Assembly: GCA_963735845.1 (NCBI GenBank)
Contig: CAVTMN010000007.1
Coordinates: 197,014-261,013, forward strand
Length of the DNA stretch: 64,000 nucleotides
Direction: 5' to 3'
Origin: Vulcanimicrobiota bacterium
Lineage (GTDB): Bacteria; Vulcanimicrobiota; Vulcanimicrobiia; Vulcanimicrobiales; Vulcanimicrobiaceae
Shown piece after piece: positions 23,815 through 43,484 of this stretch (the stretch's first letter is position 1; each line of letters opens with the position of its first letter). Under the pieces are notes generated by a model, which saw only the letters and a list, made by a program, of their open reading frames with translations, was not told where the DNA came from and searched no databases. A program made the position numbers and the translations under genes.

Positions 23815-24012
23815 ATGGATAAGATGCCGCACGAGCACTCCAACGGGACGGTGCATACGCACGAAGGCGACAAACCGGGCCACACGCACGATCATTTGCA
23901 CCCTCACGAGCATTACGACGGAACCGTCCACACGCACGAGCACAGCCACGACGGCTCGGATGCCGATCACCAGCACGAGCACGAAGAGGCTGCGCGCGAT
24001 GCCTCGAGCTAA
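23815..24012 (+). CDS. Histidine-rich small protein (candidate Ni/metal-binding peptide)
   Basis: GGAGG lies 8 nt upstream of the ATG. The 65-aa product has 17 His: MDKMPHEHSNGTVHTHEGDKPGHTHDHLHPHEHYDGTVHTHEHSHDGSDADHQHEHEE.., with GTVHTHE repeated twice. Confidence 0.6.
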   Translation: MDKMPHEHSNGTVHTHEGDKPGHTHDHLHPHEHYDGTVHTHEHSHDGSDADHQHEHEEAARDASS

Positions 24013-24364
24013 GGGATCGGGAAAACTTGGTCCGGTGAGATCGCTGCGGTTGCCGCTCGAACTCGATGGTTGGTTCGAGCAACGGCTGCGCGACGATGGG
24101 GCTCGCCCTGCGAGCGACATTCTCTTAGAGGCCGTACACGGCGGCTTACGCCTGCAGCCCGGTTATATGATTCGGCAGCACCGCGCGCTCGGCGAGCTGG
24201 TTCGGGCCGGCGACCGGATTCACTACGATTCGTACGTTCGCGCGCTGGCCGACTCGTTCGGGAGCGCGTACGTCAACCATCTCGAGGCGTGGCTCTTTGC
24301 CGACGGAACGCTTCCATTCGATACGGAAACCTCGACCGAAGCAGGAATTGCCGCTACGCGATAA
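23999..24364 (+). CDS. Ribbon-helix-helix (CopG/Arc-like) DNA-binding protein, tentative
   Basis: ATG 23999 overlaps the end of the His-rich ORF by 14 nt. VRSLRLPLELDGWFEQRLRDDGARPASDILLEAV fits a strand-helix-helix N-terminus. Confidence 0.45.
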   Translation: MPRAKGSGKLGPVRSLRLPLELDGWFEQRLRDDGARPASDILLEAVHGGLRLQPGYMIRQHRALGELVRAGDRIHYDSYVRALADSFGSAYVNHLEAWLFADGTLPFDTETSTEAGIAATR

Positions 24365-25318
24365 CGCTGCAGGGCGTGGAGTCCCATCGAGCCTGCCCAT
24401 GCTAGCGCGAACGCACCGACGATCGCGAATCCAAGCCAGCCCACCGAGACGTTCGCGCCCGCGATGCTCGCCAACTCGACGCCGCCAACGACGACGGCAA
24501 TCAGTACCGATGCCGTCGTGATGCCGAGATTGTAGTAGAGCTTGCGTTCGGGCTTGAGAAAGGCCCAACCGTACGCGCCGAGCATTAGGACTCCGTCGGT
24601 CGTATCGACGAGCGACATCCCGGCGGTAAACAACGCCGGGAAGATCAGGATCGCCCAGACCGGTAAGCCTTTACCGGCTTCGATCGCCGCGATGCCGAGG
24701 AGACCGACCTCGGTGGCGGTGTCGAAGCCGAGACCGAAAAGCACGCCGATAAGATACATGTGGCGGCTTCGCGTGACCAAGCGCAGCAGAGGCTTGAAGA
24801 AACGCCCCAGCAACCCGCGTCGATCGAGCGATTCGCCGAGGCTCTCCTCGCAGAACGTTCCGTTCTTGTCGCAGCCGCAGCAGCGCTTGCACGATGTCGA
24901 CCAGCACGAACGCGTTGATGGCGGCGATAACGAACAGGAAGGCCGCCGAAATGCCGGTGCCGGCCAGCCCCCCAAAGTTTTCCAAGCTCGGGAGGTGCGA
25001 GCGAATGCTTCCCGCGCCGAGTACGATGGCGAGCGTCAGCAGTACCACGATGGTCGAATGCCCGAGCGAGAAGAACAGGCCGACGCCGACCGGCCGTTGT
25101 CCCTCTTGCATCAGCTTGCGCGTGACGTTGTCGATCGCGCAGATGTGATCGGCATCCACGGCGTGGCGCAATCCGAACGTGTAGGCGAGCAGCGCCGTGC
25201 CTAACAACAGCGCGTGCGGCGGAGCGAAGAAACGAAAGGCGGCGACCCAGACGAGCACGTTGGCTCCAAGCAGGAGCGCGTACGTGATTACAATCTTCGC
25301 GCGCGTGGATTCGGCCAC
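24223..25318 (-). CDS. HoxN/HupN/NixA-family nickel/cobalt permease (NiCoT); one frame break
   Basis: Signature motifs RHAVDADHICAIDN and FFSLGHSTIV, then LFGLGFDTATEV in the second frame. The break is near ~24870. The 3' 140 nt overlap the convergent RHH gene, so the true stop may be earlier. Confidence 0.85.
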
Positions 25319-25372
25319 GCGATCGCGTTCTACGCTACGAAGACCCGAACCGCCGCGTTTCTGTAGACAAAT

Positions 25373-27961
25373 TCACGAGGGAGCGGTTTGTGCGAAACCG
25401 GTACGATCGCGCCGCATCGCGTCTTGTGCCAACGTTTGCGCCAGCTCTCGCCGAACTTCGGCGAGATATGAGGCGTACGGTGCGAACCAGCTCCAGCCGG
25501 CCACGTGCGCCGGCGTGCGATCGCTCCAGCTTGCCAGCAGCCGTTCCACGCGCTGCCGTTGCGACTCGCCCAATATCCCCGCGCCGCGTACCGAGTGCAG
25601 GACGTTCTCGGTCTCGCGAACGTCGCTGCCGACGTGCTCCCCAAGCGCGTATCCGTTTCTCGCGTTTTGAATTGACTCGCGATCTCCGAGTTGCGCGCGC
25701 GTCCGCGAGACGCACATCTTCAAGGCGTTGACGGCGCCTTTTCGGTCGAGCGCCGGCCAAAGGGCGGCGGCCAGCTCTTCGTTGACCGTGCCGCTCTCGA
25801 AGAGGGAGAGCGCGGCAAGCAGTTCGAGGCCGCGATCGGAGACGTGAAGGATCTCCGAGCCGCGCCGGACGTGACCGTGGATGACGTCGACGAAGAGCCG
25901 GTCGTGGCGCGCTCGCAGCGGCGATCGCGCGACGCGCGCGGCGAGACCTTTAAAAATTCCGTAATCTTCCAGTTCCGGCGAATCTACGAGCAGCTCGATC
26001 GACGTTTGAAGCGGCGGCGATTCGATCGAAGCGGCAATCGTGCGCGCCTCGAGCAGCCGGCGGCGTTGCGGCGGAGCGAGCAGCGCCGCGCATACGCGGA
26101 TGACGACCCGCAGAAAGTCGTTCTCGCTCCCGTCGATACGCTCGATTGCGCGATCCATCAACGCGACGGCCCGATCTCCGTCGTAAGAGGTTAGCGCCTC
26201 TTGAAGGTCGGCGAATGCCGCAGACTCTATTGCGTCTCCGTCCCGCGCACCGCTGACGACGAGGATCTGGCGTGCCGCCGCGACGCGATCGTCATCGTCG
26301 CGGAACCATGCCGCCTGCGCCACTGCCCGCGCCGCCTCGACGATGCGCTCGCTAGGCCCGGTGCGCAGGGCCGATGCCAGGCGCTCTTCGGCGAGTTTGA
26401 GGAGATCGTCCCAGTTGCCGTGCGTCGTCGCTTTTGCCGCAGCGATCTGAGCGCGCTCCTCGTCAAAGCGTAGATGTCGCGCTTCGTAGATCCCGGCCGC
26501 CTCTTCGACGAAACGGTCGGCATCGATGAAGCGACCCTGCTTGGCGGCGACCACGGCTGCAGTCATCAAAGCGAGGCGCTGTTCTTCGGGCGTTTCGCCG
26601 GGTGATGCCAGCGCGGCCAGGTCGGCGAGCGTTGCGCGCGCCTCCGCGAGCCGGTCGAGCTCGCACGCAAGCATCGCCCGCCGCACGCCGAGACGCCGGT
26701 AGAGCGCCGGAGAGGCGTCGGGCGAGATCGCCTGTTGCAGCGCTGCGGCTTCTTGGTAGAGACGCGCGGCGTCGGCACTACGCTGCCGGTATTTGAGCGC
26801 CGCAATCCACAAGTTGGGACGCGTCGCCAGCGACGAAACCGGAATCTTGGCGAGGGCGTCGACTAATCGCGAGGACGGCTGCTGCAAGGTTTCGAGAGGC
26901 AGGCGATCGAGAATGCCGGCTGCGGCCTCGCGTTCGCCGGCGACGTTGTAAAGCTCCGCGGCTCGCAAGAAGTCACCCACGCGCTCGTTTCCGCGCGCCG
27001 CTCGCAGTACGTAATCGGCAAAGTCGCTACCGTGCCGGGCGCGCAGTGCCGGGTGCAGCAACGGATGTAACGTATACGTTCCGGATTCGTACGTGATGAA
27101 GCCGGGGAGGCGCAATAAACCTTCGATAACCGGCGAGGCGTGTGCGATGCCGCTCGCAACGGAGATGTCTTCGAGCGTTGCGTGCGGGATGGCCGCCGCG
27201 GCCAGCATCGTCGACGTCATCTCCGCGGTTAGCGCCGAGAGCACCTCGTTGACGAGATACTCGTGCAGATCGGTCGGTATGGTGCCGAGCCGGTCGAGCA
27301 GTCCGCCGAGGTCGGCTTCGTAATGCGCGATGCGTGCCAGCAACAGCAGTGCGATCGGCCACCCTTCGGCCAAACGGACGATGCGATCGATCGTCGGTTC
27401 TGCGAGATCGGTGCCCTGGAAGATGGCCGCCGCTTCTTCGGCGTCGAGCTGCAACTCTTCGCGCGACAGCGTGAGCACTTGATGCGGCTCCAAGTAACGC
27501 GCGACGTCGAGCGGCAGGGGCCGTCGCGAACTTACTAGCAGCACGCGCTCGGCCGGACGCGCAGCCAGGAGATCTCCGATGAGCGCAAGCACGCTGGGCT
27601 GCCCGGCGATAGTATCGGCGCTTTCGAGAATCAACAGCGCGCGCTCTTGACGGAGCTTCCAGAACTCGAGCAGCGCCCGACTCCAGGCGGCTTCGCCGGC
27701 TTCGGTCGCGTGCAGCGCCAATCGGGTGCGCGCGATGGCCTCTCCGCCGGGCGATTCGCCGGCGAGCGCCGCCATCAGACGTCCGGCGAAGTCGACGGTT
27801 CCGGCAAGCTCGGCGCAGTTGCAAATCGCGTGACGATCGAATCGGCGAGCGAAAAGCTCGGCGAAATCCGTCTTGCCGTAACCCGGCGGGGCGCAAAGAA
27901 GTACGAGGCGCGGTTCGGCTGCACCGAGGCGGGCCAGCAAGCGCCGGCGGGCGAGAATCAT
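25373..27961 (-). CDS. MalT-like STAND ATPase with C-terminal OmpR/SARP-type winged-helix plus BTAD-like module
   Basis: ATG 27961 overlaps the hypB stop (ATGA). Walker A is [11 protein letters not shown], and [13 protein letters not shown] is MalT-like. A long helical-repeat middle follows. The C-terminus ([25 protein letters not shown]...[22 protein letters not shown]) looks like a trans_reg_C/SARP wHTH. The 862 aa are intact. This is the distal part of the 995-aa track ORF. Confidence 0.72.
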
Positions 27962-28641
27962 CCAGCCGGAGCGAGCGATTTCGTGCGGATCATCTCCTCG
28001 AGTAGCGAGAACCACTCGTCCATCCCTGCTCCGGTTCGCGCCGAAAGCTCGAGAATCCGCGCCTCTGGATTGACTTGGCGGATGCTGTGCGATCGCTGCC
28101 GCGCGATCGTAGCCCACGGCCTCGGCGATGTCGATCTTAGTGATCGTCGCGACCTGCGAAGTATTGAACGCCAGCGGATATTTGAGCGGCTTGTCCTCGC
28201 CTTCGGTCACGGAAAAAAGCACGACGCGCAGGTCTTCACCGAGATCGTATTCGGCCGGACAGATCAGGTTGCCGACGTTCTCGATAAAGAGCACGTCGAA
28301 GCGGCGCGTCGATCCAATCGTCGAGTGCCTTCGGCAATCATGTCGGCGTCGAGGCGGCATTCGGCACCGGTGGTGATTTGACGCACGGCGGCGCCGTCGC
28401 GGCTCAAACGTATCGCGTCGTTGTCGGTGGCTTGATCGCCGACGAGCACGCCGACTTTATAGCGAGGTCCAAGCCGTTCCAGCGTGCGTTCGAGCAGCGT
28501 CGTTTTACCGGAGCCGGGGCTCGACAGCACGTTGACGACGAGCGTTCCGCTCGCAGCAAAGCGTTCCCGAAGTCGGTTTGCGATCGCGTCGTTCTTTACC
28601 ATGAGATTACGCGCGATAGCGATGACGCGCATCTGGTTCAT
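27958..28641 (-). CDS. hypB: Hydrogenase nickel-incorporation GTPase HypB; two frame breaks
   Basis: [43 protein letters not shown] / [42 protein letters not shown] / [26 protein letters not shown]. Breaks near ~28330 and ~28085. There is no His-rich or CxxCGC N-terminus. Confidence 0.9.
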
Positions 28642-28985
28642 GCCGGAACCTCCATTGCGACGAGTTCCATTTCACGTCCCCGAACGACGCGAGGCGAGAC
28701 GGTTTCACAGTCAGGGCAGAGTAATCCCGAGCCGGGCCGCGGTGCGCGTTCGCCGAGACACCGCTCGCAGTAGACGACCAGCGGAATCTCTTCGAGGCGC
28801 AGTTGACTGCCTTCGCAGATCGTCTCGGCCGTGACGGCATCCCAGGAGAAGAGCAAGGCGTCGCGGACGATGCCGCTCAGCGCTCCGATGCGGACGTGGA
28901 CCGCATTGACGCGGTCGATCCCCTGCTCGCGGGCGGTCGTTTCGACGCCCTCTAAGAGACTGAGCGCTACCGAGATCTCGTGCAA
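28638..28985 (-). CDS. hypA: Hydrogenase nickel-insertion protein HypA
   Basis: TTG 28985 is preceded by AAGGAAGG at 7 nt and gives the canonical MHEIS N-terminus. Zn site CERC...CPDC. ATGA overlap with hypB. Confidence 0.85.
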   Translation of the reverse strand: MHEISVALSLLEGVETTAREQGIDRVNAVHVRIGALSGIVRDALLFSWDAVTAETICEGSQLRLEEIPLVVYCERCLGERAPRPGSGLLCPDCETVSPRVVRGREMELVAMEVPA

Positions 28986-29027: not shown

Positions 29028-29370
29028 AACCGTTGGCGGGGGATTTGAAAAGCGGGTTCAGCGCCGGTGACCCGCCGGGTGCTCGCTCACTCGTAACCGT
29101 TCGGTAACGCCCTTTCGCCTGCCGGTTGCCTACGGAATTTAGGGCGCGCGTTCGCTCGGGAGCGGCCGTTCGCGCAGAGCCTCAGCGAATCTCAAAAGCC
29201 GGCGGGTGCAGTAACAATTCGGTAACCGATTTGTGCGCATTTCCCCGATAAAACAGCAGCCGCACACCCTTGTAATTCGCAATTGTTTTCACTAGCCTGA
29301 TTAGTACGGTGTCCTGCGCGCCGCTGCGCGAGGTTCGGTTTTGCGGCGCATTACGTGTGAGGATAATTGC
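29028..29370. promoter_or_regulatory. Divergent hypA / hydrogenase structural-gene control region
   Basis: 343-nt non-coding gap. TTCGGTAAC occurs twice (29100-29108 and 29218-29226). The second copy sits inside the near-palindrome AATTCGGTAACCGATTT (29216-29232). A sigma70-like TTGTAA (29270-29275), 17-nt spacer and TAGCCT (29293-29298) lie upstream of ATG 29371. Confidence 0.35.
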
Positions 29371-30392
29371 ATGGCGGAAACAGTCGTAAACGTCCTCTGG
29401 ATCCCGGCCGGACTTAGCTGCGACGGCGATTCGGTAGCGCTAACGGGCGCGATCGCAGCCTAGCATCGAGGAGATCGCCCTCGGCGCCCTTCCCGGACTG
29501 CCCCCCGTCAAGTTCCACTGGCCGCTGATCGAGTTTAGTTTGGGCGGCTCGGAGTTTCTCGAGGCCTTTTTCAAGGCCGAACGCGGCGAGCTCGACCCGT
29601 TCGTTTTAGTGATCGAAGGCTCGATCGCCAACGAAGAGATCAAAAAAGAAGGCTACTTCACGGGCTTTGGCAACGCGCCGGGAACCGATCAGCCGATTAC
29701 GTTCAGCGGTTGGATCGATCGCTTATCGCCCAAGAGCGTGGGCCATTTTGGCCGCTGGAACGTGCGCGACGTACGGCGGCATCCATGCGATGGCCGGCAA
29801 TCCGACCGGAGCGATGGGCATTCTCGATTATCTCGGCTGCGACTGGAAATCGAGCGCGGGCGTTCCCATCGTTTGCGTACCCGGATGTCCGATCCAGCCG
29901 GACAATCTCTCGGAAACGATTCTCTATCTGCTTTGGCAGGCTGCAGGACGAGCTCCGATGATTCCCACTCGACGACGCGGGCCGGCCGACCTGGCTCTTC
30001 GGCAACACCGTGCACGAAGGTTGCGATCGGGCCGGTTACTACGAGCAGGGCGAGTTCGCCACGGAATACGATTCGCCCACGTGCTTGGTCAAGCTCGGCT
30101 GCTGGGGACCGGTCGTTAAGTGCAACGTTCCCAAGCGCGGCTGGATGGGCGGCGTCGGAGGCTGTCCCAACGTCGGCGGAATCTGCATCGGCTGCACGAT
30201 GCCGGGCTTCCCCGACAAGTTCATGCCGTTCATGGACGAGCCGCCGGGCGGCAAGATCTCGTCGACGGTCACGCACCGCGACCGGCACGGTCGATCAAGG
30301 CATTGCGCAACTTCACGACGGCAACGCTCGACAAGGAGCCGAGTTGGCGCCATAAGGGCAAGCAGCTCACGACGGGCTACATTAAAGGCTGA
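29371..30392 (+). CDS. hhyS: [NiFe]-hydrogenase small subunit, group 1h/5 type (no Tat signal); about four frame breaks
   Basis: GAGGA lies upstream of ATG 29371. The stitched sequence reads: MAETVVNVLWIPAGLSCDGDSVALTGA / QPSIEEIALGALPGLPPVKFHWPLIEF..DPFVLVIEGSI / AILAAGTCATYGGIHAMAGNPTGAMGILDYLG..VCVPGCPIQPDN / WLFGNTVHEGCDRAGYYEQGEF..VKLGCWGPVVKCNV..GGCPNVGGICIGCTMPGFPDKFMPFMD / ALRNFTTATLDKEPSWRHK. Breaks near ~29450, ~29740, ~29965 and ~30275. Confidence 0.9.
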
Positions 30393-30412
30393 CGACGGAG
30401 CGTACGAGAACG

Positions 30413-32208
30413 ATGGCTATTAAAGATCTTCCCGGCACCGTCACCGGAACTCAGCCTTCGCGGCTGGTCGAGATGTCGTGGGATCCGATTACGCGGATCG
30501 TCGGAAGCCTCGGAATCTACACGAAGATCGACTTCCAGAAGAAGATCGTCGCCGAATGCCACGCGACCTCGTCGATCTTCCGCGGCTACAGCATCTTCAT
30601 GAACGGCAAAGATCCGCGCGACGCGCACTTCATCACGTCGCGCATCTGCGGAATCTGCGGCGACAACCACTGCGTCTGCTCGGTCTACGCGCAGAACATG
30701 GCGTTCGGCGTGCGGCCGCCGGCGATGGGCGAGTGGATCATGAATCTCGGCGAAGCCGCCGAGTACATGTTCGATCACAACATCTTTCAGGAGAATCTCG
30801 TCGGCGTCGACTACTGCGAGAAGATGGTTCGCGAGACCAATCCGAGCGTTTGGGAGAAAGCGAAGAAGACCGAAGCGCCGAACGCCGAGAATTCACGGCT
30901 ACAAAACGATCGCCGACATCATGACGTCGCTCAACCCGTTTACCGGAGACTTCTACCGGCAAGCACTGCAGATCAGCCGCTACACGCGCGAGATGTTCTG
31001 CCTGATGGAAGGGCGCCACGTGCATCCGTCGACGCTCTATGCCGGCGGAACGGGAACGGTCGCGACGCAGCAGCTCTTCACCGACTACTACTCGCGGCTC
31101 ATGCGCTACATCGAATACATGAAGGTCTGCGTGCCGCTGCACGACGATCTCTTCGACTTCTGGTACCAGGCGCTGCCCGGATACGAGCATAACGGCGAGC
31201 GGCGCATCTTGCTGGGCTGCTGGGGCGCGTTCCAAGATCCCGACCATTGCGACTTCCAGTATAAGAACATGACGCAACTGGGGGCGCCAGATGTTCGTGA
31301 CGCCGGGCGTCGTCGTCGACGGGAAGCTGGTGACCAACGATCTCGTCGCAGATCAATCTCGGCGATTCGCATTCTGCTCGGCCATTCGTACTACGACGAT
31401 TGGGAGAACGAGGAGATCTTCGTTCCTCAAGATCCGCTCGGCAATCCGGTCGACCGGCGTCATCCGTGGAACATGCACACGCTGCCGACGCCCAAGAAAC
31501 GCGACTTCGCCAACAAGTACAGCTGGGTGATGTCGCCGCGCTGGTTCGACGGCAAGGATTATCTTGCGCTCGATACCGGCGGCGGCGCCATCGCGCGCCT
31601 CTGGTCGACCGCGCTCTCCGGTTTGGTGGACATGGGCGGCTACGTCAAGGCGACCGGCAACAGCGTGCAAGATCAATTTGCCCAAGAGCGCGTTCAGCGG
31701 GCCGGTTTCCTTCGAGTGGAAGGTGCCGAAGTGGTCGAACACGCTGGAGCGCAATCGCGCGCGCACGTACTTCCAAGCGTACAGCGCCGCAGCGCGCTGT
31801 TCTTCCTCGATAAAGCCTTCGAGGAACTCAACGCCGGCAGAACGCGTTCGTGGGAGCCGTTCACGGTGCCGAAGGAGGCGATCGGCTGCGGTTTTACCGA
31901 GGCAGTGCGCGGGCGTTCTCTCGCATCACATGGTCATCCGCGACGGCAAGATCGCCAACTATCATCCGTGGCCGCCGACGCCGTGGAACGGGAACCCGCG
32001 CGACATCTACGGAACTCCGGGACCGTACGAAGACGCGGTGCAGAACACGCCGATTCACGAGGAGAACGGACCGGACTCTTTCAAGGGCATCGACATCATG
32101 CGCGCGGTGCGCAGCTTCGATCCCTGTCTGCCGTGCGGCGTTCACATGTATCTGGGCGAAGGGAAGAGCATCGAGACGGTCCATTCACCGCTCGCGCCGT
32201 TCGGATAA
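30413..32208 (+). CDS. hhyL: [NiFe]-hydrogenase large subunit, group 1h/5 type; about six frame breaks
   Basis: N-terminal Ni-binding motif HFITSRICGICGDNH and C-terminal RSFDPCLPCGVHMY. Conserved blocks appear alternately in ORFs 30413.., 30921.., 31291.. and 31564... Breaks near ~30895, ~31285, ~31350, ~31670, ~31795 and ~31915. Confidence 0.92.
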
Positions 32209-32218
32209 ACGTCAAGGG

Positions 32219-32763
32219 ATGAGCTCCGACGTCGCTGCCGTTGGAAGGCGGATCGAAGAGCTGCTCGCTGGTTTCGGCACGCCTGGGGAGCACGGCGAAG
32301 CCCGCGAGCGGGCGGAGGAGCTCGTTCGGACGATCGTTACGCTGTACGGTGAGGGACTCGAACGTCTGCTCACGATCGTGCACGCCGAGCTTGGCGAGCG
32401 TTCCGACGAGCTCTTCGGACGGATCTGCGAAGACAGGCTCGTCGAGGGGCTCCTCTGCCTGCACGGATTGCATCCCGTCTCGCTCGAGGACCGCATCGAG
32501 GCACGCGATGCAATCGGTGTTGCCGTACATCCGGTCGCACCACGGAAACATGGAGCTCTCGCGGATCGACGGCGACGTCGTCTATCTTGCGCCTCGAGGG
32601 CAGCTGCGACGGCTGCGCCGCCTCGGCCTCGACGCTCAAGCAGGCCGTCGAACGCGCCATTCTGGAACGCGCGCCGGAGATTCGGGAAGTGCGCGCCGAG
32701 GAAAGCCTGCTCGCGCCGAGCGGCTTGCCGGAAACCTCGCTCCGGGTCGTCGCACGGGTGTGA
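32219..32763 (+). CDS. NifU-C-terminal-domain protein of the hydrogenase cluster; two frame breaks
   Basis: MSSDVAAVGRRIEELL...LHGLHPVSLEDRIEA / PYIRSHHGNMELSRIDGDVVYL / RLEGSCDGCAASASTLKQAVERAILERAPEI. Breaks near ~32500 and ~32590. Confidence 0.7.
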
Positions 32764-33404: not shown

Positions 33405-33405
33405 C

Positions 33406-35323: not shown

Positions 35324-35817
35324 AGCTGCTGGTGGCCGGTATCGGCAACATCTTTTTCGGCGACGACGGATTCGGACCGGAGGTCGCACGCGCACTGGCT
35401 AGCGACGAGTTCCCCGGCGTCAAGATCGAAGACTTCGGCATCCGCGGGCTCCATCTCGCCTACGAGCTGCTCTCGGGCTACGACCGCGCGTTCCTCATCG
35501 ATGCGGTTCCCCGAGGCGGACGGCCCGGCACGCTTTATTTGATCGAGCCGGATTCGCCGCGTTCGGCAACGATGCCCGACGCGCACCGAATGGATCTCGA
35601 AAATGTCTTTGCGTTTCTCGACCTGCTCGGCGGCAAGCCGCCGCCGATTACCCTCATCGGGTGCGAGCCGTCGCAGATCGACGAAGAGATCGGGCTCTCG
35701 CAACCGGTTCGCGAAGTGGTCGTGCCGGCGGCCGACCTCGTGCGCAGACTCCTGAGCGAAACCTTAGCCGCGACCAATGGCGGCGGAAAAGAGAGCAAGG
35801 TATGGTCAGAGGCATAA
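35320..35817 (+). CDS. [NiFe]-hydrogenase maturation endopeptidase (HupD/HyaD/HybD family)
   Basis: GTGA-coupled start. VKLLVAGIGNIFFGDDGFGPEVA...FGIRGLHLAYELL..AFLIDAV...HRMDLENV. The product is intact. Confidence 0.85.
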   Translation: MKLLVAGIGNIFFGDDGFGPEVARALASDEFPGVKIEDFGIRGLHLAYELLSGYDRAFLIDAVPRGGRPGTLYLIEPDSPRSATMPDAHRMDLENVFAFLDLLGGKPPPITLIGCEPSQIDEEIGLSQPVREVVVPAADLVRRLLSETLAATNGGGKESKVWSEA

Positions 35818-36059
35818 TCGTAGGCGCGATTGCCTTCGCAGTTGCATTCGCAGCCGAACGCGTCATTGCCGGCATGCAGCCGGATCTCGATCGGTACGAC
35901 GCAATGCGCAAGATGTCGGGTGAGGAGCCGCTTCCCAAAGAGCTGCTCTCGACGGTTGGATCGCTGTTCTCCGGGTCGGTGGACAAGAGCGCCGTTTCCT
36001 CGCTGATCGACTCTCTCACCAACGACGCCGTACGCTACGCAAAGATGCGAGGCATGTGA
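35802..36059 (+). CDS. Small protein with one N-terminal hydrophobic helix
   Basis: ATG 35802 overlaps the protease gene by 16 nt. MVRGIIVGAIAFAVAFAAERVIAG..., 85 aa. Confidence 0.45.
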   Translation: MVRGIIVGAIAFAVAFAAERVIAGMQPDLDRYDAMRKMSGEEPLPKELLSTVGSLFSGSVDKSAVSSLIDSLTNDAVRYAKMRGM

Positions 36060-36598
36060 ATCGAATGGCCGCGCAGGCGGAAACGGTCACCCGCTACGAC
36101 GTCGATTCGGCAGACTCTTCGCTGACGATTGACGCCCGATCGACGCTGCACGCCGTGCGAGCGGCGGCCTCGGGGCTCACCGGATACGTCGTTGCGGGCT
36201 GGAACTCCGACGGCAGCGTGGCCGCTGCCCCGGCCCCGATCGTACACGTCGAGTTTCCCCTCGACCAGGTTCGGTCCGGCAACCCGATGCAGGATCGCGA
36301 GATGCGTCGTCTGGTCGACGCGGGAAGATTCCCCAAAGCAAGCGGCGATCTTCGCAGCGTTGACTTGATTGCACCACCGGGTCGTTACCGGGCCAGCGGC
36401 GAGATCACCCTGGTGGGCCGCACGCGCACCTACGCCGGCGAGTTTACGATGACAAACGACGGGGGGATCGTTACCGTCGAAGGCGAGTTCAGCCTCGATA
36501 TCCGCGACTTTGGCCTCAAACCGCCGAGCTTGCTGATACTCAAGGTCGATCCCGTCTTACGCGTGATCTTGCGGCTAGTTGCGAGGAAGGGCGCGTGA
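36056..36598 (+). CDS. YceI-like (polyisoprenoid/lipid-binding beta-barrel) domain protein, copy 1
   Basis: GTGA-coupled. RYDVDSADSSLTIDARSTLHAVRAAASGLTGYV..VRSGNPMQDREMRRLVDAGRFPKA..YRASGEITLVGRTRTY..SLDIRDFGLKPP follows the YceI pattern seen in the canonical copy at 49221..49772. Confidence 0.6.
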   Translation: MNRMAAQAETVTRYDVDSADSSLTIDARSTLHAVRAAASGLTGYVVAGWNSDGSVAAAPAPIVHVEFPLDQVRSGNPMQDREMRRLVDAGRFPKASGDLRSVDLIAPPGRYRASGEITLVGRTRTYAGEFTMTNDGGIVTVEGEFSLDIRDFGLKPPSLLILKVDPVLRVILRLVARKGA

Positions 36599-37173
36599 CG
36601 GTTATCGAAGAGCGATGCGACGGGCGTGTTCAATTGAAAGTCATGGCAGAAAAGCCGAACTACGAACGCTTCGATGTTGCGAGCACCGACTCGTCGCTGA
36701 CGTTCTTTGCGACTTCGACCCTCTTTCCGGTGTACGGAAAAGCGACCGAGATGACCGGCTACGTCGAGGCGGCTTGGCACGAGAACGGCACGCTGGCCGT
36801 CGATCCGCCGCCGCGGATGTACGTCGAGCTCAAGGTCGAGAGCCTGCGCACCGGCAACGAGCTGCAGGACCGCGAGATGTGGAAGCTCGTCGATAGCAAG
36901 CGGTTTCCCAAGATCGTCGGAGAGCTGCGCGAGCTGAGCGCGGCTGCGCTACCAGGGCGCTACACTGCCGCGGGCAATATCACGCTGGCCGGCTTGGCGC
37001 GCCGCTACGAAGGCGAGCTGTTGCCTTCCCGCGATGGCGATTTAGTGCGAATCGCCGGCGAGATCAACGTTGACGTGCGCGACTTTGGATTGAAGTCGAT
37101 GAACCTGCTCGTGCTCAGCGTCGAACCGCTGGTGCGCGTGCGCCTGCGCATGGTCGCGCGTAAGAAAGGGTAG
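36595..37173 (+). CDS. YceI-like domain protein, copy 2 (tandem paralogue)
   Basis: GTGA-coupled. RFDVASTDSSLTFFATSTLFPVYGKATEMTGYV..LRTGNELQDREMWKLVDSKRFPKI..YTAAGNITLAGLARRY..NVDVRDFGLKSM aligns with copy 1 throughout. Confidence 0.6.
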   Translation: MTVIEERCDGRVQLKVMAEKPNYERFDVASTDSSLTFFATSTLFPVYGKATEMTGYVEAAWHENGTLAVDPPPRMYVELKVESLRTGNELQDREMWKLVDSKRFPKIVGELRELSAAALPGRYTAAGNITLAGLARRYEGELLPSRDGDLVRIAGEINVDVRDFGLKSMNLLVLSVEPLVRVRLRMVARKKG

Positions 37174-37181
37174 AGGCCGCT

Positions 37182-37460
37182 ATGTGTTTGGCCATTCCCG
37201 GCCGCATCATCGAAATTTCGCCCGAGCAGTCGGCGCTGGCGAAGGTCGACGTGGCCGGCGTGCGGCGCAACGTCAACATCAGCCTCCTCGTGGACGAGGG
37301 CGTGCAATCCGGGGACTGGGTCTTGATCCACGTCGGATTTGCCATGAGTAAGATCGAGGAATCGCAGGCGCGCGATCAGCTGCGCATGCTCGCGGCGCTG
37401 GGTGAAGACGAGATGGCAATGGACGAGATACGGGGTTATACGTTTGCCGAACGCGAGTGA
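37182..37460 (+). CDS. hypC: Hydrogenase assembly chaperone HypC/HupF
   Basis: MCLAIPGRIIEI...GDWVLIHVGFAM is the canonical HypC N-terminus and core. Confidence 0.9.
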   Translation: MCLAIPGRIIEISPEQSALAKVDVAGVRRNVNISLLVDEGVQSGDWVLIHVGFAMSKIEESQARDQLRMLAALGEDEMAMDEIRGYTFAERE

Positions 37461-37653
37461 AGGCTGCACGACCTGCGGCGACACTGCGTTGGCACTGCGG
37501 GTCCTCGAACGCGACGGCAACCGCGCGGTTTGCGCCGGCGCGGATGGTGGCCGGAGTGTCGTAGAGCTGGATTTTGTTCCCGACGCTACGACCGGCGACG
37601 TCGTACTCGTTCATTTTGGCGTTGCGATCGCGCGGGCACCACGGGAATCGTGA
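37444..37653 (+). CDS. Second HypC/HupF-family small protein (CxxC type)
   Basis: ..EGCTTCGDTALALRVLERDG..AVCAG..VELDFVPDATTGDVVLVHFGVAIA. The start is TTG 37444 or GTG 37402. Confidence 0.55.
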   Translation: MPNASEGCTTCGDTALALRVLERDGNRAVCAGADGGRSVVELDFVPDATTGDVVLVHFGVAIARAPRES

Positions 37654-37654
37654 G

Positions 37655-38767
37655 ATGAAGTTCGTCGACGAGTTTCGCGACCCGCAGCTCATTCGCAATG
37701 TTTCGCGCGAAATCGGCCGGCTGGCCGATTCCGATCGCCACTACCGCATCATGGAGGTCTGCGGCGGGCATACCCACGCTATTTACCGGCACGGCCTCAA
37801 GAATCTGCTGCCGCCCAACGTCGAACTGATTCACGGACCGGGATGTCCGGTCTGCGTCTTGCCGATGGGGCGCATCGACGACGGTCTGGCGATCGCCGAA
37901 CAGCGCGACGTAATCATGACCGCGTTCGGCGATATGATGCGCGTTCCCGGAACGCGGGGAACGCCGCTCGAGCTCAAGGCGCGCGGCGTGGATATCCGGA
38001 TGGTGTATTCGCCGCTGGACGCGCTGCGCATCGCTCAAAACACACCCGATAAACACGTCTTTTTCTTCGCCATCGGCTTCGAAACGACGGCACCGTCGAC
38101 GGCGTTGACGCTGGCACGCGCGAAGGCGCTGGGGATTCGCAACTTTTCCGTGTTCTCCAATCACGTCACGATCGTTCCGGCGATTCGCGCGATTTTGGAT
38201 TCGCCCGATATGCGTCTCGATGCGTTCGTCGGCCCGGGACACGTTTCGACGGTAACCGGATGCCGGCCGTACGAGTTCATCGCGCGCGACTACGGCAAGC
38301 CCGTCGTCATCTCGGGCTTCGAGCCGCTCGACATCCTCGAGTCGATCCTGATGATCTTGCGGCAGCTGCGCGATAAGGAGTCGCGCGTCGAGAATCAGTA
38401 TCGCCGCATCGTTCCCTGGGAAGGCAACTTGCCGGCGCTGGCGGCAATCGGCGAAACCTTCGAGCTGCGGCCGTATTTCGAGTGGCGCGGCTTAGGATTC
38501 ATCTCGCAGTCGGCGCTGAAAGTCTCCAAGGCCTACGCGCAGTGGGATTCGGAGGTGCAGTTCGAGGTGCCCGGCGTGCGCGTCACCGATCCGAAGGCGG
38601 CGCAGTGCGGCGAGGTGCTCAAAGGCGTGCTCAAGCCGCCGCAGTGCAAGCTCTTTGGAAAAGAGTGCAATCCCGAGCATCCCATCGGCGCGCTGATGGT
38701 CTCGAGCGAGGGTGCCTGCGCGGCCTACTATCGTTACGTGCACCTCAACGAGTCGGTGACGGCGTAG
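37655..38767 (+). CDS. hypD: Hydrogenase maturation protein HypD
   Basis: MKFVDEFRDP..IMEVCGGHTH..HGPGCPVCV..FFAIGFETTAP..GPGHVS..SGFEP. The 370 aa are intact. Confidence 0.93.
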   Translation: MKFVDEFRDPQLIRNVSREIGRLADSDRHYRIMEVCGGHTHAIYRHGLKNLLPPNVELIHGPGCPVCVLPMGRIDDGLAIAEQRDVIMTAFGDMMRVPGTRGTPLELKARGVDIRMVYSPLDALRIAQNTPDKHVFFFAIGFETTAPSTALTLARAKALGIRNFSVFSNHVTIVPAIRAILDSPDMRLDAFVGPGHVSTVTGCRPYEFIARDYGKPVVISGFEPLDILESILMILRQLRDKESRVENQYRRIVPWEGNLPALAAIGETFELRPYFEWRGLGFISQSALKVSKAYAQWDSEVQFEVPGVRVTDPKAAQCGEVLKGVLKPPQCKLFGKECNPEHPIGALMVSSEGACAAYYRYVHLNESVTA

Positions 38768-38779
38768 AGGTCCGCAGGC

Positions 38780-39829
38780 ATGGATACCATCGAACGCGCC
38801 GTGCCGCGGGTGCGTTTCGCCGACAGTCAAATCGAAATGGCGCACGGTGCCGGCGGCAAAGCCTCGCGGCGTTTGGTCGAAGGCCTTTTCGTTCCATTGC
38901 TCTCCAACCCAATTCTGGAGACGCTCTCCGACGCCGCCATCTCACATTTCAACGGCTCGCGGATTGCGACGACCGCCGACGCCTACGTCGTCAAGCCGCT
39001 GCGTTTCCCCGGTGGGTCGATCGGTGAGCTAGCCGTGAACGGAACGGTCAACGACTTGGCCGTCTCCGGTGCCAAGCCGCTCGGCCTCATGGCGGCGTTC
39101 ATTCTCGAGGCCGGCCTGACCGGCGACACGCTGCGAGCCGAGGTCGAAGCGATGGCGGCGGCGGCGGCGCGTGCCGAGGTTGCGATCGTCGGCGGTGACA
39201 CCAAGGTCGTCGAGCACGGAATGGCCGATGGAATGTACGTCACGACCTTCGGGTTCGGCGAAGTCGATGCGCGCGCACATCTCGGGCCGGCGCGAGTTCG
39301 CGAGGGCGATCGGGTGCTGCTCTCGGGCCCCATCGGCGATCACGGCATCACCATTCTGCTCGCGCGCGGCGAGCTCGATCTCGAAGCCGACTTGGCATCG
39401 GACACGCGCTCGGTCGCGCCATTCGTCGACGCGCTGCTCGATTCGGCCGGGGATGCGCTGCACTGGATGCGCGATCCGACGCGCGGCGGCGTCGCCACGG
39501 CACTCAACGAGCTGGTGCATGCGACCGAATTCGGTATAACGCTCTTCGAAGAAACGATTCCGCTGCGCGACGAAGTGCGCGGAGCCTGCGAGATTCTCGG
39601 CCTCGATCCGTTGCACATCGCCAACGAAGGACAGCTTCTTGCCGTTGTCGCGCCCGACCACGCCGATGCGGCGCTGGCAGCGATGCAGGCCGTACCGGGC
39701 GGCGAAGGTGCCGTCTGCATCGGTGAAGTGAGGTCGAAACCGGCGCGCGCGGTGCTGGCGGTGACGAGCTACGGTGGAAGCCGCATCATCGACATGCTCG
39801 TCGGTGACCCTCTTCCACGCATATGCTGA
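38780..39829 (+). CDS. hypE: Hydrogenase maturation protein HypE
   Basis: AIR-synthase-like fold sequence with the diagnostic C-terminal ..DPLPRIC*. The 349 aa are intact. Confidence 0.93.
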   Translation: MDTIERAVPRVRFADSQIEMAHGAGGKASRRLVEGLFVPLLSNPILETLSDAAISHFNGSRIATTADAYVVKPLRFPGGSIGELAVNGTVNDLAVSGAKPLGLMAAFILEAGLTGDTLRAEVEAMAAAAARAEVAIVGGDTKVVEHGMADGMYVTTFGFGEVDARAHLGPARVREGDRVLLSGPIGDHGITILLARGELDLEADLASDTRSVAPFVDALLDSAGDALHWMRDPTRGGVATALNELVHATEFGITLFEETIPLRDEVRGACEILGLDPLHIANEGQLLAVVAPDHADAALAAMQAVPGGEGAVCIGEVRSKPARAVLAVTSYGGSRIIDMLVGDPLPRIC

Positions 39830-41020
39830 CGCACGAACCGTCGCTGCGGAAACTCGAGCGATGGATGCGCACAGCGCTTCGAGGAACGCGATGCCGTCTC
39901 CGAGACGTTCTTCCCGCAGCAAGCGCGGCCGCTGGCTCTGGCCTGCCGGCAGACGTTCGAGCGGTTTCGCCGCGGCGGCCGTTTGCTGGCATTTGGAAGA
40001 GGCGCCTACGCGACCGACGCGCAGCACGTCTCGGTGGAGTTCGTTCACCCCGTCATCGTCGGAAAGCGCGCGCTGCCGGCGATGGATTTGAGCTTGGCTT
40101 TCGCGCCGTGGATCGACGCGATTCTCGATCCGAATGATATCGTGATGGGCTTCGGTCCGCCCGAAGGCGACCCCGAGGTTATGCGCGTGCTCGAGCGAGC
40201 GCACGACCGCGGCGCGCTCACCTTTGCGCTACCCGGAGAGAAGGCCGATTATGCCGTAGCGGCTCCCAGTACCGATCCGCACGTGCATCAAGAGATGATC
40301 GAGATTCTCTGTCACACGCTATACGAAACCGTGCACGTTTTTTTCGAGCACGACGAGATGGGACACGACGTCGGCGCGTCGAGCTTTCTCTATCCGTTTT
40401 TGGGCGAACGCGGCGGATCGCAGGATTCGCTGGTGGACGAAGTCGCCGCCTCAATCCTCATGAAGGCACAAGATGCGCGTCGTTTGCGCGGCGAGGTCGT
40501 CGCGAGCCAGGCCCCCGCGATGGCGCGGGCCGTAACGGCAATCGCCCGCGAGCTCCAGTCGGGCGGCAAGCTCATCCTCTTCGGTAACGGGGGCTCGGCA
40601 ACCGACGCGACGGATTGGGCGCTGGACTGCGTGATTCCCGAAGGAGACGTTCGTCCGATTCCGGCCGTTTCGCTGGCGCTCGAACCGGCCATCCTTACGG
40701 CCGTTGCCAACGACGTCGGCACCGAGGTCATCTTCCTGCGCCAGCTCGTCGCGCAAGCGCGTCCGCACGACGTGGCCATCGCGCTCTCGACCAGCGGCGG
40801 ATCGAAGAACGTCGTCGCGGCACTCGAAGAGGCGCGCAAACGCGAGATGCTCACCATCGCGCTGCTCGGATACGACGGCGGCGAGATCGTTCGCCGCGGG
40901 CTGGCCGACATTCCGATCGTCGTTCACAGCGATTACATCCCGCGGATTCAAGAAGTGCAGGGAAGCATCTATCACGTCATGCGCGAGGCGCTCGATAGGC
41001 TCGGCCGCGATGCCGCTTGA
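39823..41020 (+). CDS. Double SIS-domain (GmhA/sedoheptulose-7-P-isomerase-like) protein; one frame break
   Basis: ATG 39823 overlaps the hypE stop. The break near ~39875 leads into ..RFRRGGRLLAFGRGAYATDAQHVSVEFVHPVIVGKRALPA.. and a second SIS unit ..GGKLILFGNGGSATDATDWALD..ALSTSGGSKNV. Confidence 0.7.
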
Positions 41021-41249
41021 GCTTTATGGGACGCGTTCGTGTCCCTATACCGCCGAACTGCGCTCCGAACTGCAGTGGGACGGCAAGCCGTTCGTCGAGT
41101 ACGACGTCGAAGCCGACGCCGGCGCGCTCCGGCGTCTCTTCGCGCTCGTCAGCGGCTCGGTCAGCGTGCCGGTGCTCGTCGAAGACGGGCAGGTCATACA
41201 GGTCGGCTGGAACGGTCAAGGCTGTTACGTAGCCGCCGCACGGACGTGA
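41010..41249 (+). CDS. Glutaredoxin/NrdH-fold small protein (CPYT motif)
   Basis: MPLELYGTRSCPYTAELRSEL..FVEYDVEAD..VPVLVEDGQVIQVGWNGQGCYV. It overlaps the SIS gene by 11 nt and is GTGA-coupled to hypF. Confidence 0.6.
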   Translation: MPLELYGTRSCPYTAELRSELQWDGKPFVEYDVEADAGALRRLFALVSGSVSVPVLVEDGQVIQVGWNGQGCYVAAART

Positions 41250-43484
41250 TCGAGGCCCGGCACGTACGCATCACCGGGATCGTGCAGGGCGTCGGCTTCC
41301 GCCCGTTCGTCTACCGGCTCGCCCGCGCGCACGGCCTGCACGGCTGGGTGCTCAACGCCGAGACCGGCGTCGAGATACACGTCGAAGGGGCACCATCAGC
41401 GCTGCCAGGTTTTCTCGGTGCAATCGAATCACAGGCGCCCGCCGCGTCGCGCATCGCCTCGTTCGACATCGTTCCGACGCTGGTGTCGGGATTCGACGAC
41501 TTCACCATTCGCGAGAGCGTGCGAACGAGCCGCCCGACGGTGCGCGTCTCGCCGGATTTGCCGGTCTGCGAGGATTGCTTGCGCGAAATGGGCGACCCGA
41601 ACGACCGCCGCTTCGGTTACCCGTACATAAACTGCACCAACTGCGGGCCGCGCTACAGCATCATTCTAGGTTTGCCGTACGACCGTCCGCAGACGACGAT
41701 GCGCGACTGGCCGATGTGCGAGCGCTGTGCCGCCGAATATCACGATCCGCTCGACCGCCGCTTTCACGCGCAGCCCGTCGCGTGTCCCGACTGCGGGCCA
41801 TCGTACTATTTGACGGTCGACGGCGTCACGGAGCGCGGGGACGCGGCGGTTTCTCGCGCCGCAGCGCTGCTGCGCGAGGGTGCGATCGTCGCGATCAAAG
41901 GTCTGGGCGGCTACCACTTGGCTTGCGACGCAACGCAGCCCGAGGCGGTCGCGCGCGCTGCGCGAACGAAAGTATCGAAAAGAGCGGCCCTTTGCGGTGA
42001 TGACGCGCGATTTAGAATCGGCCGCAGCATTGGTGGACCTCTCGCCGGAACACGAACGCCTGCTGCAATCCATGCAGCGGCCGATCGTGCTGGCTCCGGC
42101 AAAGGTTGAGTTAGAGGGCGTCGCGCCGGAGAATCGCGACTACGGCGTCATGCTGCCGTACACGCCGCTGCATCATTTGCTCTTCCGGCACGGCGCGCCC
42201 AGCGTGCTGGTGATGACGAGCGCGAACCGCTCCAGCGAACCGATCGCGTACGCCGATGACGACGCGTTCGAGCGGCTCTCCGGAATCGCCGACGCGTTTT
42301 TGACCGGCGAGCGCGAGATCGCGCGCCGCGTCGACGACTCGGTGGCAGCGGTCGGTCCGTACGGCCCGGTCGTGCTCCGTCACGCGCGCGGAGGCGCGCC
42401 GGCTGCGATCGCCCGGCTACCGACGCGCCGTCCGACGCTTTGCACGGGCGCCGATTTGAAGAACGCGGTTACGCTGGTCGTCGACGGGCAAGCATTTACG
42501 AGCCAGCATATCGGCGATCTCGATCACTACGGATCGTTCGCGGCGTTCAAAGAAACGATCGCCGATCTCTGCACGATGTACGACGTGCCGATGGGCGAGC
42601 TTCTGGTCGTCCACGACGCGCATCCGGAATATGCATCGACCCAGTACGCTCGCACGCTTCCGGGCGAACATCGAGCCGTACAGCATCATCGCGCGCACGT
42701 CGCCAGCGTGCTGGTCGAACGCGAGGCGTTCGATACGCGCGTCGCCGGGATCGCTTTCGACGGAACTGGTTACGGCGACGACGGAACGATTTGGGGTGGA
42801 GAGATCTTCACCGGCAGCTTGCGCGAGGGCCTAACGCGTGCCGTTTGGCTGCGTGAAGCCAAGCTACCCGGCGGCGACGCCGCCGCGCGCTATCCGGTGC
42901 AAGCGGCGGCCGGCTTTTTGAGCGAGCTCGACGATTTGCCCGATCTTACCGCCGCGCCTTTCGACTTCCCGGAACGTTACACCAAAGCGAAGCGGTTAAC
43001 CGAGAGCGGCATCCGTACGTTTACCACGACGTCGGTCGGCCGGCTCTTCGACACGGTGGCCGCGCTGCTGGGCTTCACGCGTCCGATCACGTTCGAAGGG
43101 CAGGCGGCGATGTGGGTCGAGCACCTCGCCTGGTCGGACGCGAGCGAAGATAGCTATCCTTTCCCCGTCGTCGCTGCGCGGCTGGACTTTCGCCCGCTGC
43201 TGGCGGCCGTGGTCGCCGATCGCCGGCGCGGCCGCGACGTGCGCGAGATCGCGGGCGCCTTTCATCGCGCGCTTGCGGACGCGATCGCGAGCGCCGTCGA
43301 GATGCTCGAACCAAAGCAGATCGTTGCGTCGGGCGGCGTCTTCCAGAACGCACTGCTGGTCGAACTGCTCGCCCAGCGTTTCGGCGACCGGCTTTGGATC
43401 AACCAAAAGGTTCCCGCCAACGACGGCGGCATCAGCCTCGGCCAGGCGGGCATCGCCGCCGTTTACTCAGGCACGACCGCTTAG
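41246..43484 (+). CDS. hypF: Carbamoyltransferase HypF; one frame break
   Basis: Acylphosphatase domain (RITGIVQGVGFRPFVYRLA), two Zn-finger pairs (CEDCLREM..INCTNCGPRYS; CERCAAEY..ACPDCGP), YrdC-like (IKGLGGYHLACD) and Kae1-like C-terminal half. The break is near ~41950. Confidence 0.9.

Follow-up and report, generated by a model that had tools for sequence, protein, structure and literature searches.

Which kind of [NiFe] hydrogenase is encoded between positions 23815 and 43484 of a 64,000-nucleotide (nt) stretch from a Vulcanimicrobiota bacterium (contig CAVTMN010000007.1; the whole stretch is referred to here as the window), are its broken genes decayed or only misread, and do the genes around it form a system of their own? 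An annotation made earlier from the same DNA, the original prediction, had described a self-contained hydrogenase island of the group 1h type with nonstandard accessory genes. Our analysis indicates that the locus is very probably a chromosomal group 1h hydrogenase (hhy) cluster of the Vulcanimicrobiota (Eremiobacterota/WPS-2) with a set of genes for building the enzyme, under the inferred control of a regulator, and with frameshifts that are erroneous.

Identity of the hydrogenase

The class was called from bit scores against reference structures, together with the L1 and L2 motifs, the signal-less N terminus, and the gene order. The three genes at the head of the cluster are as follows.

29371 to 30392, plus strand: hhyS, small subunit, five frameshifts (match to HofK of PDB entry 5AA5)
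30413 to 32208, plus strand: hhyL, large subunit, seven frameshifts, i.e., six insertions and one deletion (match to HofG of 5AA5)
32219 to 32763, plus strand: hhyE-like gene for a NifU-domain protein, short form, CxxC at 32596 to 32625, two frameshifts (Pfam NifU)

Both hallmarks that had been predicted for the large subunit, TSRICGICGDNH (30635 to 30670) and SFDPCLPCGVH (32113 to 32145), are present and align with HofG. As predicted, the small subunit is devoid of a twin-arginine motif; it begins with MAETVVNVLWIPAGLSCDGDS at 29371, the N terminus of HhyS reads MAETVVNVLW..., and the alignment begins only at residue 21 of HofK. Frame-corrected HhyL scored 1054 bits against HofG, with the next PDB match at 157 bits, and HhyS scored 521 bits against HofK, with the next match at 149 bits. 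Huc, a group 2a enzyme, gave 110 and 98 bits against the subunits in the window. The gap in bit scores behind HofG and HofK bears out the assignment to group 1h. The gene order is that of group 1h as well: hhyS and hhyL are adjacent and are followed by hhyE, conserved hypothetical genes, and a protease gene. The closest proteins to HhyL in the database are 95% identical (P0001), and the best-scoring homologues that bear names are mostly from Eremiobacterota/Vulcanimicrobiota, a phylum from which a group 1h hydrogenase is already known (PMC9561532, PMC9758169).

From its class, the enzyme is predicted to be an oxygen-insensitive [NiFe] uptake hydrogenase that faces the cytoplasm. One observation weighs against reading more into the class: the group 1h enzyme of Cupriavidus necator has been described as a low-affinity enzyme (PMC10017518), and therefore the high affinity suggested by the original prediction is not guaranteed by membership in group 1h.

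The hhyE-like gene lies directly 3' of hhyL, and its product matched Pfam NifU with an E value of 3e-20 and carries the motif EGSCDGCAAS. The protein has 180 amino acids (aa) and stops after the NifU domain, without the C-terminal domain with two CxxC motifs. Truncated forms of HhyE have been recorded, and HhyE is needed for Hhy activity in Mycobacterium smegmatis (both PMC6883350).

In three group 1h loci from other phyla (fetched loci are given by L numbers), an extra HhyS-like gene was seen about 3 kb upstream of the first one (L010, 5165 to 6139; L018, 5377 to 6336; L068, 5768 to 6712), which suggests tandem paralogous hydrogenases in these loci.

Nature of the frameshifts

The predicted cluster exists, but 10 of its genes are broken in the given sequence by about 26 single-base insertions or deletions (indels), nearly all of them insertions. 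The indels were located by frameshift-aware alignment of the proteins of close relatives to the DNA and by DNA-DNA alignment; they are found in hhyS (5), hhyL (7), the hhyE-like gene (2), the genes for the DUF5947 (2) and DUF6084 (2) proteins, a gene for a protein of about 425 aa (2), the SIS gene (1), hypF (1), hypB (3), and nicO (1). If they were real, the locus would be a decaying pseudogene array and H2 oxidation would have been lost, and so many frameshifts over 10 genes, concentrated in hhyS and hhyL, are what speaks for decay. Pseudogenes, however, do not age by twelve indels with essentially no added substitutions. The private residue changes in HhyL number 9 in the window compared to 15 and 20 in two intact relatives, those in HhyS 12 compared to 10 and 12, and the corrected frames contain no premature stop. 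Moreover, the same type of indel breaks unrelated genes throughout the window, namely, those for TamB, a MATE transporter, kynureninase (frameshift at about 4475), and MgtE. The giant TamB-like gene (12172 to 16657, minus strand) is split into five frames, and the switch points are 1-nt indels relative to the intact open reading frame (ORF) in L094. L094 and L018, which to judge from their record names are long-read assemblies, have private split genes of their own, at positions different from those in the window. Since there is no excess of residue changes, the indels occur window-wide, and the related contigs have private split genes, the frameshifts are most likely sequence errors, presumably of a long-read consensus, and not signs of gene decay. 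On the same three observations, the first of them in the form of a relative-rate test, decay that is specific to the island was rejected, and we consider a decaying array very unlikely altogether.

The distribution of the indels is harder to reconcile with sequence errors. The density is about 1 indel per kb over the window and reaches four per kb in hhySL: 12 indels fall into the 2.84 kb of hhySL (Poisson P = 7e-4), none into the 2.56-kb regulator gene (P = 0.03), and none into the 4.5 kb from the protease gene to hypE (P = 0.002). A uniform error model does not predict such clustering. Homopolymer errors and errors at methylation motifs were considered and rejected; the inserted base could be A, C, or G, its context varied, a run was lengthened in only two cases, and no clear pattern was seen. 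In practice, automated annotation would label this hydrogenase broken.

Organization and boundaries of the gene cluster

The region from 23815 to 43484 contains 23 genes in two divergent sets. The minus-strand set comprises hypA, hypB, the gene for an 862-aa regulator, and nicO; two further genes, for a His-rich and a 121-aa protein, lie on the plus strand and are convergent with nicO. In addition to the three genes given above, we assigned the following.

23815 to 24012, plus strand: His-rich 65-aa protein with two (N/D)GTVHxH repeats (translation, orthologues)
23999 to 24364, plus strand: conserved 121-aa protein (66 homologue clusters)
24223 to 25318, minus strand: nicO, nickel transporter of the NicO/HoxN type, one frameshift near 24871 (Pfam NicO, E = 1e-85, spliced protein)
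25373 to 27961, minus strand: 862-aa regulator, reading frame intact (NCBIfam MalT, PDB 8BOB, AlphaFold 2 [AF2] model and Foldseek)
27958 to 28641, minus strand: hypB, GTPase, three frameshifts at about 28332, 28307, and 28093 (Pfam cobW, spliced protein)
28638 to 28985, minus strand: hypA, TTG start (Pfam HypA, E = 2e-28)
32760 to 33409, plus strand: DUF5947 protein with N-terminal CxxC...CxCxxC, two frameshifts (Pfam, E = 2e-68)
33406 to 34042, plus strand: DUF6084 protein, two frameshifts (Pfam, E = 2e-70)
34050 to 35323, plus strand: conserved protein of about 425 aa, two frameshifts (in 82 of 85 group 1h loci)
35320 to 35817, plus strand: large-subunit maturation endopeptidase of the HycI/HupD type (Pfam HycI)
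35802 to 36059, plus strand: 85-aa membrane protein with a single helix, DUF6893-like (tail motifs, position)
36065 to 36598, plus strand: YceI-like protein 1, alternative GTG start at 36056 (Pfam YceI, E = 2.5e-12)
36643 to 37173, plus strand: YceI-like protein 2, alternative GTG start at 36595 (Pfam YceI, E = 1.2e-9)
37182 to 37460, plus strand: hypC (Pfam HupF_HypC, E = 1.5e-25)
37402 to 37653, plus strand: second ORF of the HypC family, GCTTCGD at 37462 to 37482, start uncertain (Pfam, E = 2e-9)
37655 to 38767, plus strand: hypD (tblastn, 92% to HypD of L004)
38780 to 39829, plus strand: hypE (tblastn, 86% to HypE of L004)
39823 to 41020, plus strand: double-SIS (GmhA-like) protein, one frameshift at about 39868 (Pfam SIS_2, NCBIfam gmhA-like)
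41010 to 41249, plus strand: glutaredoxin-like protein with CPYT, Uxx-star family (NCBIfam NF041212)
41246 to 43484, plus strand: hypF, one frameshift at about 41933 (ORF and frameshift-aware alignment)

The protein of about 425 aa had no match in Pfam or NCBIfam. An ORF check confirmed that 17 ORFs follow one another on one strand from 29371 to 43484 and that neighboring ORFs either overlap or are no more than 20 nt apart. The gaps are 20 nt between hhyS and hhyL and 10 nt between hhyL and hhyE, and the overlaps include several GTGA, one ATGCTGA, and others of 11 and 16 nt. At the DUF5947/DUF6084 junction, the given sequence has no in-frame stop. Coupling of the divergent unit was likewise only partly supported: ATGA overlaps connect hypA with hypB and hypB with the regulator gene, but the regulator gene and nicO are separated by about 55 nt, and therefore these two genes are not coupled. 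Terminator-like hairpins are not in excess within the operon (8 found versus 17 expected in shuffled sequence). With the tight junctions, this is consistent with one long transcript from hhyS to hypF. Scans for promoters and terminators of the Escherichia coli type gave nothing useful in the hypA-hhyS spacer and no excess of terminators in the operon, and a riboswitch or another RNA element was dropped as an idea after an Rfam scan of the window gave no match at the gathering score.

The boundaries also held: the genes on either side are unrelated; upstream, they encode a DUF6582 protein and an S9 peptidase, and downstream there are a lipoprotein-like ORF, a TPR protein gene, and a gene for an AraC-like regulator. 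Could the cluster be a recently acquired mobile genomic island? It is self-contained, and group 1h clusters are located on plasmids in C. necator and some actinobacteria. Against this, the G+C content is flat over both boundaries and the flanks are syntenic with L094, where synteny extends over 12.8 to 34.4 kb, far past the cluster, at 88.8% DNA identity. The window has neither a tRNA gene nor an Rfam match, and none of the ten flanking genes scanned against Pfam encodes an integrase or transposase. We regard a recent acquisition as highly improbable. Identical gene order with intact genes was found in L001, L004, L005, L008, and a 22-kb contig of the Joint Genome Institute. Because of the same order in relatives, the synteny with L094, the flat G+C content, and the absence of tRNA and mobile genes among those scanned, the sequence data indicate a stable locus that is conserved on the chromosome rather than an isolated island. 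The DNA identities (84.5% and 88.8%) exclude that the window is from the same genome as OY969808.1 (L008) or L094.

Outside the cluster, the G+C content drops past about 46 kb, from about 0.64 to 0.53 to 0.60. A kynurenine-pathway pair is located at 3644 to 5531 on the minus strand (kynureninase, 3644 to 4745; tryptophan 2,3-dioxygenase, 4800 to 5531), and 56920 to 58887, also on the minus strand, encodes a signaling protein of the MASE1-SpoIIE(PP2C)-HATPase type.

Conservation of the accessory genes

According to the original prediction, the accessory genes are a nonstandard set that has not been characterized as a unit. We searched the proteins of the window against 85 group 1h loci of many phyla. 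The hhyE, DUF5947, and DUF6084 genes, the gene for the protein of about 425 aa, and the protease gene are present in 82 to 83 of the 85 loci (81 to 83 if hypC is included). Other genes are patchy, and each of these also occurs outside the Eremiobacterota: the SIS gene in 31 loci, YceI in 13, and the glutaredoxin-like gene and nicO in 8 each. Thus, the accessory genes do co-occur with hydrogenases, and the claim of a nonstandard set is largely overturned, since the order is found in public relatives and most of the genes recur in other group 1h loci.

Across phyla, YceI genes of group 1h loci are almost always located between the protease gene and hypC, and both YceI-like proteins of the window are without a signal peptide. 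A third gene of the YceI family is present in the window outside the cluster, in a group (49233 to 49778, minus strand; 49927 to 50274 and 50276 to 51070, plus strand) with genes for an HxlR-like regulator and a ring-cleavage dioxygenase of the LigB type. The hypD-hypE-SIS-glutaredoxin-hypF block is shared with Acidobacteriota and Gemmatimonadota, with identities of up to 77%. The glutaredoxin-like protein scored 68.7 bits against NF041212, for which the cutoff is 66, and its relatives conserve CP(Y/H)(T/C) and a C-terminal GC motif. In the second HypC-like ORF, no start codon is found beside the Cys motif; the nearest relatives do not have this ORF, and its region is about 195 nt longer than that in L004; ORFs orthologous to it, with the motif GCxTCGD, are present in two loci of Actinomycetota, L023 and L030.

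Do the accessory genes nevertheless form a novel integrated unit that sets the island apart from known group 1h clusters? In the survey of 85 loci, the regulator was seen only in loci of the Eremiobacterota type, and the genes for the His-rich and the 121-aa proteins were never beside hhyL; they were found only in contigs of the Eremiobacterota type. Only this lineage has the membrane peptide in its 85-aa form, and the doubled YceI and the second HypC differ as well. However, most of the listed genes recur in group 1h loci of other phyla, some have been published before (PMC5900883, PMC6883350), the membrane peptide can be grouped with DUF6893, a near-universal protein, the nickel genes occur without a hydrogenase in L092 and are thus a separable module, and the whole arrangement is present in public contigs. 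On balance, a novel integrated unit is quite unlikely. Three features set the lineage apart: the regulator together with the repeats, the trio of nickel genes, and a doubled YceI accompanied by the extended membrane peptide.

The regulator

The label of a STAND/SARP regulator in the original prediction was right in substance. The protein is built from a MalT-like P-loop nucleotide-binding oligomerization domain (NOD), a helical/TPR middle part, and a C-terminal SARP module, i.e., an OmpR-type winged helix with BTAD-like helices. The Walker A motif, APPGYGKT, is encoded at 27869 to 27892. The N-terminal half matched NCBIfam MalT (E = 2e-21, below the equivalog cutoff) and PDB 8BOB (E = 1e-13). 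An AF2 model of the last 200 aa had a predicted local distance difference test score (pLDDT) of 89.7, and its top Foldseek matches were AfsR structures (8HVR and 8K60; template modeling score of 0.67 over 176 to 181 columns; E = 1.6e-4 for 8HVR_I), followed by DNA-binding domains of OmpR/PhoB. Profile searches fit the SARP assignment less well: Pfam Trans_reg_C was matched with an E value of only 0.0056 (17 bits, below the 26-bit cutoff), and BTAD was not matched. One homologue of the regulator has a precomputed PF00486 assignment.

The regulators form a tight family of about 70 clusters with at least 47% identity and, where named, are from genera of the Eremiobacterota only ("Candidatus Cybelea" and Tumulicola). 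In 12 of 12 cases examined, the gene is part of a hypA-hypB-regulator set adjoining hhySL. A NOD with a C-terminal SARP module is not unique to these proteins; many other proteins of about 900 aa match including the C-terminal module, and the architecture is that of a wider, unstudied family. In fold, the last 200 aa resemble the AfsR SARP module, but the order of domains is NOD-sensor-SARP here and SARP-NOD-TPR in AfsR. The NOD resembles that of MalT, whereas the output domain is a SARP module here and a LuxR-type helix-turn-helix in MalT.

Repeats and putative promoter upstream of hhyS

Alignment of the hypA-hhyS spacer of four loci exposed repeats and a putative promoter; the promoter was not called by the scan for E. 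coli consensus sequences.

29093 to 29108, plus strand: repeat site 1, GTAACCGTTCGGTAAC, a pair of GTAAC units with 11-bp spacing (spacer alignment)
29211 to 29226, plus strand: repeat site 2, GTAACAATTCGGTAAC, with the -35 element 43 bp downstream (spacer alignment)
29270 to 29298, plus strand: putative hhyS promoter, TTGTAA, 17-bp spacer, TAGCCT (conserved in 13 loci)

The promoter consensus from the four aligned loci is TTGnAn-17-TAG(C/G)(C/G)T. The GTAAC-N6-GTAAC pair lies upstream of this promoter in 13 loci, with both repeats seen in 12 of them. The window contains the exact double repeat at 29093 and 29211 and nowhere else, and each locus of the Eremiobacterota type that contains the hypA-hhyS spacer also has it twice; the remaining 84 fetched loci, all of which are without this spacer and 83 of which are also without the regulator, do not have it. 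A scan of metagenomes gave 120 matches, of which 6 were new hypA-hhyS spacers and 114 were chance matches, as is understandable for a pattern that specifies 20 bases. L175 and L200 have 12 bp between the end of site 2 and the -35 element, and the other 11 loci have 41 to 43 bp. The difference is about three helical turns, and the same face of the DNA is thus kept.

SARPs are known to read direct repeats with 11-bp spacing. GTAAC 5-mers 11 bp apart would fit a reader with tandem winged helices such as the one modeled here, and several repeat sites in one promoter region are reminiscent of MalT boxes and SARP heptads. We propose that the regulator binds both GTAAC-N6-GTAAC direct repeats in the hypA-hhyS spacer and that, on some signal, it would activate the conserved hhyS promoter and probably also the divergent hypA-hypB-regulator unit. 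Two features of the promoter weigh against this: the repeats end about 42 bp short of the -35 element on its upstream side, whereas classical SARP sites lie over that element, and the -10 element, TAGCCT, agrees poorly with the E. coli consensus. If the repeats are not the operator of the regulator, another factor would bind them, or the regulator would chiefly control nickel uptake. The remote position of the repeats would agree with this, and so would the location of the regulator gene between hypB and nicO. However, repeats and regulator occur together in L001 and L090, where neither nicO nor the gene for the 121-aa protein is nearby, the repeats are missing from every fetched locus that has no regulator, and the geometry of the 11-bp direct repeat suits a tandem winged-helix reader. 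We therefore rate another reader of the repeats, or a regulator devoted mainly to nickel, as possible but rather unlikely, and prefer the repeats as the candidate operator of the regulator.

The nickel genes

The 65-aa His-rich protein had no match in Pfam or NCBIfam; orthologues are present in L094, L092, L088, L111, and L200. It is a candidate nickel buffer or chaperone. HypB of the window is without a His-rich N terminus, whereas HypB of C. necator has a His-rich stretch, which fits a separate nickel-buffering protein. The gene for the 121-aa protein shares 14 nt with the gene for the His-rich protein and about 140 nt with nicO, at the 3' end of the latter. All of the homologues of the 121-aa protein begin with MPRxKGSG. 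Its gene adjoins the NicO gene in L094, L088, L092, and L093; in L093 it is also beside a gene for a TonB-dependent receptor. The arrangement of the trio in the window recurs in L094, L111, and L200, the three genes have the same direction in L088, and in L092 a hydrogenase is lacking within 7 kb of the trio. These arrangements suggest that the His-rich protein, the 121-aa protein, and NicO form a separable module, presumably for nickel uptake.

The original prediction had labeled the 121-aa protein (23999 to 24364) a ribbon-helix-helix (RHH) protein. An RHH-like pattern can be seen by eye, but the label was not upheld: there were no matches in Pfam or NCBIfam, and a profile search against PDB was empty. 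An AF2 monomer model (pLDDT of 71.6), which as a monomer cannot form the RHH strand pair, had no significant match in Foldseek. With all of these approaches negative, an RHH or NikR-like identity was set aside as unsupported.

A membrane microprotein next to the protease gene

The gene for the 85-aa membrane protein directly follows the protease gene. The protein carries one motif twice, as PDLDRYDAMRKM after the helix and as NDAVRYAKMRGM at the C terminus. In other phyla, a protein of 33 to 50 aa with one hydrophobic helix is encoded between the protease gene and the next gene, and its tail reads S-(L/I)-P-D-(I/V)-x-R-Y-L-(K/R)-(I/M)-R-x-M, followed by the stop. These short forms scored 29 to 57 bits against Pfam DUF6893 (PF21833). 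The protein of the window was below the threshold (E = 3.9), and the orthologue from L008 had an E value of 0.0073; we treat the 85-aa protein as a divergent, extended relative of DUF6893. A tblastn search had found the peptide in only 3 of 85 loci, as if it were restricted to Eremiobacterota, but this was an artifact of sensitivity that the motif search and Pfam DUF6893 corrected. Using a loose pattern and a hydrophobicity filter within 900 nt of the protease gene, we found a DUF6893 micro-ORF in 68 of 83 group 1h loci. The pattern occurred once in the window, and control loci, unrelated ones with a total of 599 kb, did not contain it. For the invariant residues, the first two codon positions are constant and the third varies, and Asp (70 of 70 copies) and Pro (60 of 70) are conserved even though the pattern did not demand them; the micro-ORF is therefore a real coding gene. 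The micro-ORFs L006:19700-19800 (C. necator pHG1) and L007:19253-19372 are missing from the gene tables of pHG1 and the Mycobacterium intracellulare plasmid, and no mention of DUF6893 was found in the papers searched.

Hhy is associated with the membrane, with no known anchor or transmembrane segment (bioRxiv 10.1101/769216; PMC13332983). A tentative idea, to which we give a low probability, is that the DUF6893-type protein is the missing membrane anchor of group 1h hydrogenases and that the cytoplasmic YceI-like proteins, whose fold is a polyisoprenoid-binding one, hand quinone to the enzyme. HucM, the stalk of the group 2a hydrogenase Huc (PMC10017518), would be a functional analogue only, in that a small subunit links the hydrogenase to membrane and quinone. 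If true, the anchor would explain both the membrane association of Hhy and its coupling to respiration.

Comparison with known systems

HhyL is about 75% identical to HofG of C. necator H16, where HofK/HofG (5AA5), a hydrogenase of the actinobacterial type (group 1h, formerly group 5), are encoded on the megaplasmid pHG1. The two clusters share a core of a divergent NiCoT gene, the small and large subunits, NifU, DUF5947, DUF6084, a hypothetical protein of about 450 aa, and the protease, as well as hypFCDEAB, a SIS gene, and an unannotated DUF6893 micro-ORF 3' of the protease gene. However, pHG1 is without the MalT/SARP regulator and the YceI, glutaredoxin-like, His-rich, and 121-aa genes; its SIS protein has a single domain, whereas that of the window is double, and its hypA and hypB are located at the end of the same strand. 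Hhy of M. smegmatis is of the same class, and a gene for an HhyE of the NifU type directly follows hhyL there, of which the window has the short form. Control of mycobacterial Hhy has been attributed to DosR and to starvation, and a regulator encoded in the cluster has not been reported there (PMC13098282), whereas the window has one. Group 1h loci of Acidobacteriota and Gemmatimonadota (L018, L036, L067, L068, and L077) share the hypD-hypE-double SIS-glutaredoxin-hypF block at 50 to 77% identity but have no regulator, mostly no YceI, and another extended form of the DUF6893-like protein; the gmhA-like SIS and glutaredoxin genes have already been drawn in acidobacterial group 1h loci (Eichorst et al. 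2018, PMC5900883). Literature searches on hofK/hofG and on DUF5947/DUF6084 gave nothing useful.

We propose the following route. NicO would import nickel, which the His-rich protein would buffer; HypCDEF would make the Fe(CN)2CO unit, HypAB would insert nickel, and the protease would then trim HhyL. Electrons from H2 would leave via the three FeS (iron-sulfur) clusters of HhyS, possibly via HhyE, to the respiratory quinone.

Significance

Group 1h hydrogenases are credited with part of the soil sink for atmospheric H2, and in desert soils those of Eremiobacterota have been suggested to supply the energy for carbon fixation. The kind of system described here is known; new are a lineage variant with a candidate operator for a cluster-encoded regulator, a nickel module, and the extended form of a near-universal microprotein. 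How hhy genes are switched on has been left open in the literature (PMC13098282), and the locus offers a MalT/SARP regulator with conserved repeats and a conserved promoter as a candidate. As to how Hhy is seated in the membrane, it offers a one-helix microprotein, usually overlooked in annotation and encoded beside YceI-like lipid-binding proteins, that may take part.

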